From: Eledone cirrhosa
Taxonomy: Eukaryota
Length of the DNA stretch: 64,000 nucleotides
NCBI GenBank assembly: GCA_964016885.1
Contig: OZ024742.1
Coordinates: forward strand, 159,340,001 to 159,404,000
Reading direction: 5' to 3'
The position numbers and the translations under genes are program-made. Positions 55,472 to 56,620 of this stretch are shown piece by piece. Numbering within the stretch: the stretch's first letter is position 1; each line of letters opens with the position of its first letter. The notes under the pieces are model-generated. The model was not told the origin of the DNA and did no database searches. It saw only the letters and a program-made list of their open reading frames with translations.

Positions 55472-55538
<67 letters not shown>

Positions 55539-55752
55539 GTCAAAAATGTACATCCACATATGTATACTGAAATACTAGTATGCATATGAATACACACACG
55601 TGTACATATGTAGATGTACCGAGTTTTTCACTGGACACTTTACTGTGAGTGTTCAGCTAGTCTGTATGTAAACACACAGACAAACCGGTTTTTAGAGTCA
55701 TACTGGTTTTCGAGGAAACACCTTTCCTCTATTCTTCAGAAAGCCAGACAGG

Positions 55753-55797
55753 AATATTGGACTAGTTTCGATGTTGTTACATCTCATCAGCAATATT
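55753..55797 (-). ncRNA. Canonical type I hammerhead ribozyme, family B
   Basis: AATATTG CTGATGA GATGT-AACA-ACATC GAAA CTAG TC^CAATATT: perfect core, G10.1-C11.1 pair and a GUC site. Confidence 0.9.
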
Positions 55798-56244
55798 TAC
55801 CTATCCTCCGGCCTTTCTAGAGAATCGTAAAAGCACATATCGTTATATGCTTTTTCTATGAAAATTAGTAGTGGGCAGACTAATTTGCATAGAGCGTGAG
55901 TACGTACCGGTTCAGCGGAGACGATAAAAACAAATAACGAAACGAAATTAAATTTCGTTTCGTTTGTAACTCACTTTTGTATGACTGACGCTTAAACAAT
56001 TAAGTCAAAAATGTACATCCACATATGTATACTGAAATACTAGTATGCATATGAATACACACACGTGTACATATGTAGATGTACCGAGTTTTTCACTGGA
56101 CACTTTATTTGTTTTTATCGTCTCCGCTGAACCGGTACGTACTCACGCTCTATGCAAATTAGTCTGCCCACTACTAATTTTCATAGAAAAAGCATATAAC
56201 GATATGTGCTTTTACGATTCTCTAGAAAGGCCGGAGGATAGGTA

Positions 56245-56289
56245 AATATTGCTGATGAGATGTAACAACATCGAAATTAGTCCAATATT
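56245..56289 (+). ncRNA. Type I hammerhead ribozyme, family B second copy
   Basis: Same as 55753-55797 except GAAA-TTAG-TC. Confidence 0.82.
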
Positions 56290-56525
56290 CCTGTCTGGCT
56301 TTCTGTAGAATAGAGGAAAGGTGTTTCCTCGAAAACCAGTATGACTCTAAAAACCGGTTTGTCTGTGTGTTTACATACAGACTAGCTGAACACTCACAGT
56401 AAAGTGTCCAGTGAAAAACTCGGTACATCTACATATGTACACGTGTGTGTATTCATATGCACCAGTCATACAAAAGTGAGTTACAAACGAAACGAAATTT
56501 AATTTCGTTTCGTTATTTGTTTTTA

Positions 56526-56620
<95 letters not shown>

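Follow-up and report, generated by a model that had tools for sequence, protein, structure and literature searches.

What is the sequence that folds back on itself at positions 55533-56526 of the DNA analysed here, and which enzyme may have put it into a (TA)n run? The analysed stretch, referred to below as the window, comprises 64,000 nucleotides of Eledone cirrhosa (assembly GCA_964016885.1, contig OZ024742.1, positions 159,340,001 to 159,404,000 of the forward strand). A first-pass annotation had described the locus as the second of two families (A and B) of hammerhead ribozyme (HHR) monomers, with a 465-nt unit and a tandem plus fold-back layout. The 465-nt period was recovered, as 55533-55642 and 55998-56107 are identical throughout their 110 nt, and so was the inversion near 56107, where 56105-56461 matches the reverse complement of 55581-55937 at 99.4% identity. 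The insertion is indeed flanked by (TA)n on both sides; the left run (55470..55532) is common to a separate fold-back element further left, and the right one (56527..56703) is a (TA)n/(TG)n tract. The fold-back part of the described layout stands, but its tandem part is short: since the recurrence covers 110 nt, the left arm (55533..56107, minus strand, 575 nt) consists of one 465-nt unit plus 110 nt and not of two full units.

The 3' end of the left arm, at 55533, is what we call the short fixed end, lying 227 nt past the HHR cut. Just 5' of it there is a long hairpin (55548..55619, minus strand), homologous in family A, which we infer to be a candidate protein-binding element. The 74-nt ‘tail’ between the short and the long end occupies 55924..55997 (minus strand) and contains a 13-bp hairpin (55936-55965, minus strand) that is conserved in family A. 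The main part of the right arm (56105..56461, plus strand) covers unit positions 288-465 followed by 1-179, and overlaps the left arm by 3 nt at the inversion (56105..56107), where the 5'-truncated ends of the two arms meet. One feature had escaped the earlier description, namely that after 56461 the right arm omits 58 nt, the short-end site included, and resumes as 56463-56526 (plus strand, unit positions 238-301, the reverse complement of 55924-55987), the end of which is the long fixed end. As the left arm is minus-sense and the right arm plus-sense with respect to the RNA, the 3' ends of both arms face outward.

Each strand of this copy carries one HHR. The intact one, which is the ribozyme quoted in the annotation with its GAAA, CTAG and TC motifs, lies on the minus strand (55804-55748), is predicted to be cut at GUC between 55760 and 55759, and comprises helix I with a UA bulge, CUGAUGA, a 5-bp helix II, GAAA, a 2-bp helix III and the ACUAGU palindrome. 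It had been called canonical, which is correct for its type I layout, but helix III has only 2 bp plus the palindrome, so that cleavage would likely need a dimer formed through ACUAGU; this form of HHR is described as requiring a dimer (PMC4209133). The palindrome is kept in the minus-strand copy, but not in the second, plus-strand copy (56238..56294), where it is broken by C15.2>U at 56277, a change that weakens the duplex of the palindrome (predicted at -6.2 kcal/mol without it and at -3.9 or -1.6 kcal/mol with it). An Rfam scan returned no hammerhead at the gathering score; the HH9 model matched the window HHR below the cut-off (34.2 bits vs 52, E 1.6e-6), and miRNA matches were discarded as noise from TA-rich hairpins. 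The minimum-energy fold of the 86-nt HHR region differs from the active HHR fold, and 8 of 9 Xenopus retrozymes are reported to have failed to cleave in vitro (bioRxiv 10.64898/2026.07.22.740005). Because it bears one HHR per strand, the window copy is likely a dead end that could not release a monomer, and it lacks the two consecutive HHR-bearing units by which the same preprint recognizes an ‘active’ retrozyme. Taken alone, the locus is ordinary, one among several hundred inert-looking copies.

The picture changes at the scale of the genome. The exact B HHR has 1,582 genome copies, while its reversed control has 0, which indicates that the motif is more than a chance occurrence. With a looser core pattern, covering the wider family, at least 38,974 matches were obtained (control 0; the forward count of 20,001 may be a lower bound), the first 100 of which include A-type and B-type variants and one arm in which 31 units precede an inversion. 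When the unit itself was used as a query and 40 of 998 candidates were scored, 191 matches were obtained, the full units being 98-100% identical except for one at 94%. The young B copies are scattered over many contigs, have no LTR, and end at internal positions of the unit; their arrays consist of 465-470 nt units with an HHR in each. The annotation had asked whether the unit is only the pLTR of an adjacent coding PLE and never occurs as free multimers. Arrays of 31 units and more do exist, and these free arrays, together with the high copy number, argue that the unit is not merely the pLTR of a neighbouring PLE.

Comparison of 14 natural units separated them into two clades, one of them B (463-469 nt) and the other A (420-538 nt), which are about 70% identical over aligned positions and homologous across the whole unit (global alignment score of 369 vs 162 +/- 11 in 200 shuffles). 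The view that the stems of B differ entirely from those of A must thus be abandoned in favour of end-to-end homology with compensatory stem changes. That B belongs to the same system as A is correct, but the two share far more than a fold, B being a diverged sister clade of A. In an alignment of 19 chosen HHR sequences, related to one another and representing few independent lineages, 95.1% of cells were paired, in comparison to 82.3% in shuffles and at most 51% in slid controls; 7 of 16 pairs were altered on both sides and the covariation score was 0.368 vs 0.147, while the number of double-change pairs among these 19 related sequences was not above shuffles (183/500). When the window copies of A and B were compared by eye, helix I and helix II each showed two double changes. 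That the ribozyme structure is conserved, as proposed, is supported by this alignment, in which the fold is kept through compensatory stem changes. The base of helix II is without a standard pair in 12 of the 19 sequences, being U-U in the A type, as it is in HHR_Amex2 (PMC7229834).

The B unit has a GC content of 37% and 67% of its bases paired, and as a circle it folds at -148 kcal/mol vs -95 +/- 5 kcal/mol for 40 shuffles (z -10.7). No open frame of 60 aa was found on the RNA-sense strand of the unit, and stops occur in all six frames of the dimer (first 170 codons per frame). Tandem type I HHR repeats of animals that are expressed as circles are known as non-LTR retrozymes, with PLEs proposed as their movers (PMC7229834). 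Like B, these have tandem non-coding units of a few hundred bp with one type I HHR each, a GC content below 50%, a highly self-paired monomer and a weak palindromic helix III, and they coexist with PLEs. The B unit of 465 nt is above their reported range of 150-450 bp; moreover, RNA circles have been demonstrated for them, whereas B is known here from genomic sequence. In two public runs whose kind is not on record (X4 and X5), the unit forms a single closed contig (464 and 466), but this was left out of account, as a tandem array looks identical in such data; none of the public runs listed with the unit is on record as RNA, which says nothing either way on expression. Within the known class of animal non-LTR retrozymes, the window copy is a young member of a new family whose sister is family A.

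How such units are inserted may be read from their ends. We assembled 66 non-redundant B loci from the 39 best matches and the first 30 exact-HHR loci on one contig (C1), 3 being common to both sets; an older neighbouring copy at one locus (L100) and a 31-nt piece at another (L012) were dropped before counting. Counted from the cut site, the ends fall into two classes, short at about 227 (214-245) and long at 301 (295-302), the fixed 3' ends of the two being 74 nt apart. Both outer ends could be classified in 48 of the 66 loci, and every one of these 48 had one short and one long end (25 + 23), with no short/short or long/long case. The same held for the positional subset on contig C1, with 22 of 30 loci classifiable and all short/long. 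The remaining 18 of the 66 were single-armed, interrupted or unresolved by the script. The great majority of fixed ends (101/111) adjoin TA/AT runs. The ends of family A are homologous to those of B, and 3 of 16 A loci had both ends matched by the strict motif, all three being short/long; the window itself contains three family A fold-backs (40135-41152, 44777-46652 and 61631-62350), each with one short and one long end. At three loci (L001, L222 and L233, the window copy being among them) the long-end arm omits the short-end site, perhaps, at a guess, through collision with a second enzyme. Two further loci are mentioned as observations: L133 (3213-3570) has a lone B fragment (117-232) inside a direct duplication of (TA)n and about 55 unique bases, and in L234 (G000:C1:154.71 Mb) a 5.5-kb insert with Hydra H1 pLTR ends as its borders is flanked symmetrically by two B arms, each truncated at 277.

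It might be supposed that a satellite or MITE-like repeat propagated at the DNA level, with fold-backs arising by snap-back, or that the arms are an assembly artefact of TA-rich sequence. Long arrays do exist and the region is rich in microsatellites. However, the short/long polarity of all 48 loci fits poorly with any of these ideas, and in 16 of the 48 neither arm is contained in the other, which means that one arm is not a snap-back copy of its partner. Furthermore, arms differ at several bases, the central junctions vary from a 50-nt overlap to a 23-nt gap and follow no single rule (by a rough exact-match measure), and the long end joined to (TA)n is also present in 5 contigs of a public run, which may be related to the assembly sample. 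This explanation was already disfavoured, and we consider it very improbable. The same can be said of a SINE-like element moved by a LINE of the L2/CR1/RTE type, fragments of which occur in the window. LINE reverse transcriptase fragments are frequent there, LINEs have been named as possible partners of retrozymes (PMC7229834), and (TA)n together with about 55 bp is directly duplicated around one single-armed fragment. Yet a LINE would hardly account for a tandem unit with two fixed internal 3' ends, for outward-facing twin arms or for the lack of poly(A), and a tail is stated to be absent from non-LTR TPRT (PMC8557442).

The insertions of PLEs offer a much closer parallel. They are described as containing partial tandems and an inverted 5'-truncated copy, often with a tail at one end only, and elements of the Hydra clade insert in (TA)n (PMC8557442, Craig 2021). 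When assayed in vitro, the PLE of the anole cleaves both strands of AT-rich DNA, extends them and initiates at two internal sites, the spacing of which equals the tail (PMC11167929, Frangieh 2024). B thus shares with EN+ PLEs the partial tandems, the inverted copy, the one-end tail, the AT-rich or (TA)n target and an HHR in the repeat, but it has no ORF, its tail is 74 nt where 30-40 bp are quoted for EN+ PLEs, and its helix I is of full size, not that of a minimal HHR. Because the retrozyme ends match this pattern in the one-end tail, the inverted 5'-truncated copy and the (TA)n target, a PLE enzyme is the likely mover, and fold-backs with one short and one long end likely imply that a PLE-type enzyme inserts retrozymes into TA runs. 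As for the window copy, it is a young, non-coding 465-nt hammerhead repeat that was probably pasted into (TA)n by a PLE reverse transcriptase-endonuclease.

The course of events that we propose is as follows. Arrays would be transcribed, the HHR would cut, likely as a dimer through the palindrome, and monomers would be ligated to circles. A PLE protein, probably a dimer, would then nick both (TA)n strands and prime cDNA at two internal sites on a template of one RNA kind, either circular or an uncut multimer. Synthesis would pass the ribozyme junction and could cover anything between part of one unit and many units, and the two truncated cDNAs would meet tail to tail and be joined at the centre. 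Later local duplication may account for the growth of a few very long arrays.

That the template is of one kind is suggested by a comparison of arms. At 13 polymorphic sites in 50 two-armed loci, the arms share alleles in 509 of 519 comparisons, while permuted arm pairs agree at 74% (maximum of 82% in 2,000 permutations), and divergence is 0.8% across arms vs 2.7% between loci; it should be noted that later gene conversion between arms could raise this agreement. In one locus (L016) every unit of either arm carries the same private variant. On the other hand, 10 of the 519 comparisons disagree, some arrays hold 4-, 5- and 6-unit higher-order repeats, and others are built of mixed units, from which it follows that not every array arose from one monomer. 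The cut site is crossed by 49 of the 53 arms in a sample that was chosen for an intact HHR. An apparent pile-up of 5' ends at the ribozyme cut was set aside (5 arms within 4 nt, three running 6-10 nt past the cut). One B array of at least 35 kb (G000:C1:95.645-95.682 Mb; L228, L242-L249) has a 2,817-bp, 6-unit higher-order period and several units with a mutated core.

Whether the template is a circle or an uncut linear multimer is a distinction that the data presented here do not make. Our tentative model, which we hold at slightly less than even credence, is that one RNA circle is engaged by a dimeric enzyme of the Hydra clade at two fixed sites separated by 74 nt, one for each strand of the target, and that by rolling round the circle each insertion would become a short/long fold-back. 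If this is true, the roughly 39,000 ribozymes would be a direct genomic record of PLE-moved retrozymes in which one enzyme dimer makes both arms, and a template of less than 500 nt would keep structural signals only, with no sequence likeness to its helper. A different possibility, rather unlikely in our opinion, is that a PLE copies an uncut linear multimer and that the HHR has no role in transposition, being a passenger or a transcript trimmer. In vitro, the anole PLE used mainly uncut RNA as its substrate, and HHR mutants were without effect on its insertion (PMC11167929), Naiad PLEs spread without canonical HHRs (PMC8557442), and the mixed alleles and higher-order repeats of some arrays would be accommodated by such a template. 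It is more difficult to explain in this way why clades that differ by 30% have retained the HHR core and fold, or why arms of at least 15 near-identical units share variants; we also infer that 5'-truncated linear copying alone would shorten arrays in every round, and circles have been shown for coral, mussel and axolotl retrozymes (PMC7229834). Two exact start sites, at 227 and 301, can be named on the 465-nt RNA, and the homologous ends and hairpins kept in two clades 30% apart point to a recognition signal.

If a PLE enzyme is the mover of these retrozymes, one may ask which PLE it is. The unit could be the pLTR of an unsampled autonomous PLE, with the copies being 5'-truncated insertions and the arrays arising by unequal crossover, as in one model of a preprint by Li, Clavereau and Pollet (bioRxiv 10.64898/2026.07.22.740005), which regards animal retrozymes as non-autonomous PLE derivatives that come from pLTRs. 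Xenopus retrozymes do match pLTRs according to that preprint; in the present genome, PLEs have the same ends and fold-back form as the retrozymes, and the array of at least 35 kb with its 2,817-bp period is what crossover might produce. Nevertheless, at the 66 B loci the end of the unit runs on into its own start across the HHR, inverted arms are often both multimeric, which local crossover leaves unexplained, and nearby PLE coding sequence is set off by TA or other DNA, except at a single junction, where the PLE has an unrelated pLTR of its own. We therefore judge this origin of the copies improbable. Consistently, no B arm at the 66 loci continued into its own RT + GIY-YIG ORF, the single junction found leading to an unrelated Hydra pLTR.

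A PLE partner was sought among four families, while the genome holds many more candidates; the Hydra clade was assigned by the motifs RWK, DKT and CxCX5C, and Neptune by its CX2-5CxxC linker. No autonomous PLE with a homologous pLTR was found in Neptune (30 loci), Hydra H1 (30 loci) or the Hydra Y pLTR, which gave only microsatellite or nested-copy matches, and by eye the Hydra X pLTR had no likeness to A or B. The tails of these PLEs measure about 35 nt in Neptune, about 72 nt in Hydra H1, 107 nt in Hydra Y and about 113 nt in Hydra X. Three direct joins of a retrozyme to a Hydra PLE without a TA spacer were met by chance. In one (L007/L131; L131 = G000:C3:345.09 Mb), B is joined to a full Hydra Y, and the locus is long/long, which breaks the short/long rule. 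In another (L119/L189; L189 = C1:212.78 Mb), A is joined to a nearly full Hydra H1, with the retrozyme end not in TA; the PLE arm of L189 reaches from its own short end back slightly beyond its own long-end site, one unit minus the tail. In the third, a single case (L257, C1:441.88 Mb), a Hydra pLTR is joined to a piece of A at the CTAGT palindrome. These joins are suggestive, but each of them could be an insertion with deletion. When further Hydra-retrozyme fusions at the palindrome were sought, no recurrence was found (2 matches, L257 and another without a retrozyme; 0 in the reverse order), and no direct joins were seen in 30 Neptune loci within 1.5-kb flanks. Also considered as partner candidates were HHRs that combine the same palindrome with a longer helix II, but these were rejected, nearly all of them being rearranged A or B copies (81 matches, 30 loci examined). 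Hydra fragments often adjoin retrozyme ends, yet both use (TA)n, and proximity was not counted as evidence. On the whole, we lean towards the Hydra clade as the most likely partner, at somewhat better than even, which is a lean and not a result; a PLE of another kind seems clearly less likely, and Neptune slightly less likely still.

The mover of animal retrozymes has so far been a hypothesis derived from co-occurrence and pLTR likeness, and the short/long polarity ties them to PLEs through the anatomy of insertion alone. The preprint cited above deals with the same class and the same proposed partner, with monomers, dimers and multimers of 51-972 bp units, but its evidence consists of co-occurrence in Xenopus and pLTR similarity, whereas B shows a PLE insertion signature and no homologous pLTR was found. 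Its text does not use the words ‘tail’ and ‘initiation’ and has ‘inverted’ in one reference title only, and the words ‘inverted’ and ‘tail’ are absent from the main text of PMC7229834. Fold-back or tail ends of retrozymes were mentioned in none of the titles or abstract beginnings of the literature searched, though supplements or other papers may show them. The strict short/long rule for fold-backs seems therefore to be an addition to the literature and a useful mechanistic link to PLEs. Comparable, too, are non-autonomous Chlamys elements such as MRC1 (PMC8557442), which are non-coding PLE parasites with pLTRs and head-to-tail copies; unlike B, they have a 3' end resembling that of their autonomous family and are mostly without canonical HHRs.

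Several PLE remnants lie near the insertion. A broken, 5'-truncated Hydra-clade PLE occupies 56738-58388; it was rejected as the owner of the unit, since approximately 210 nt of microsatellite lie in between and its family has a different pLTR and HHR. A small fold-back of the pLTR of that Hydra family, centred in the hammerhead, is found at 53331-53530. An intact 777-aa Neptune-type PLE with 1,155-nt inverted pLTRs and a tail of about 35 nt extends over 35088-40091 and has a hammerhead-like motif with a U3-A8 core variant near 39940-39985; 110 scored copies of it are at 99-100% protein identity, suggesting that it was very recently active. Directly to the left of the B insertion there is a separate (TA)n fold-back (54929-55470, centred near 55252, with a left arm that exceeds the right one by about 89 nt), which is likely the end of another PLE-type family; it contains an HHR-like motif with its core at 55012 (minus strand), and related motifs occur at 59805 and 17111 (minus strand). 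Further CTGATGA motifs at 33902, 46852, 52448, 53163, 41272 and 5721/5787, some in apparent hairpin contexts, are possibly minimal HHRs of other PLE families. Finally, Rfam identified a 5S rRNA gene or a derivative of it at 23582-23700 (minus strand, 99.3 bits).
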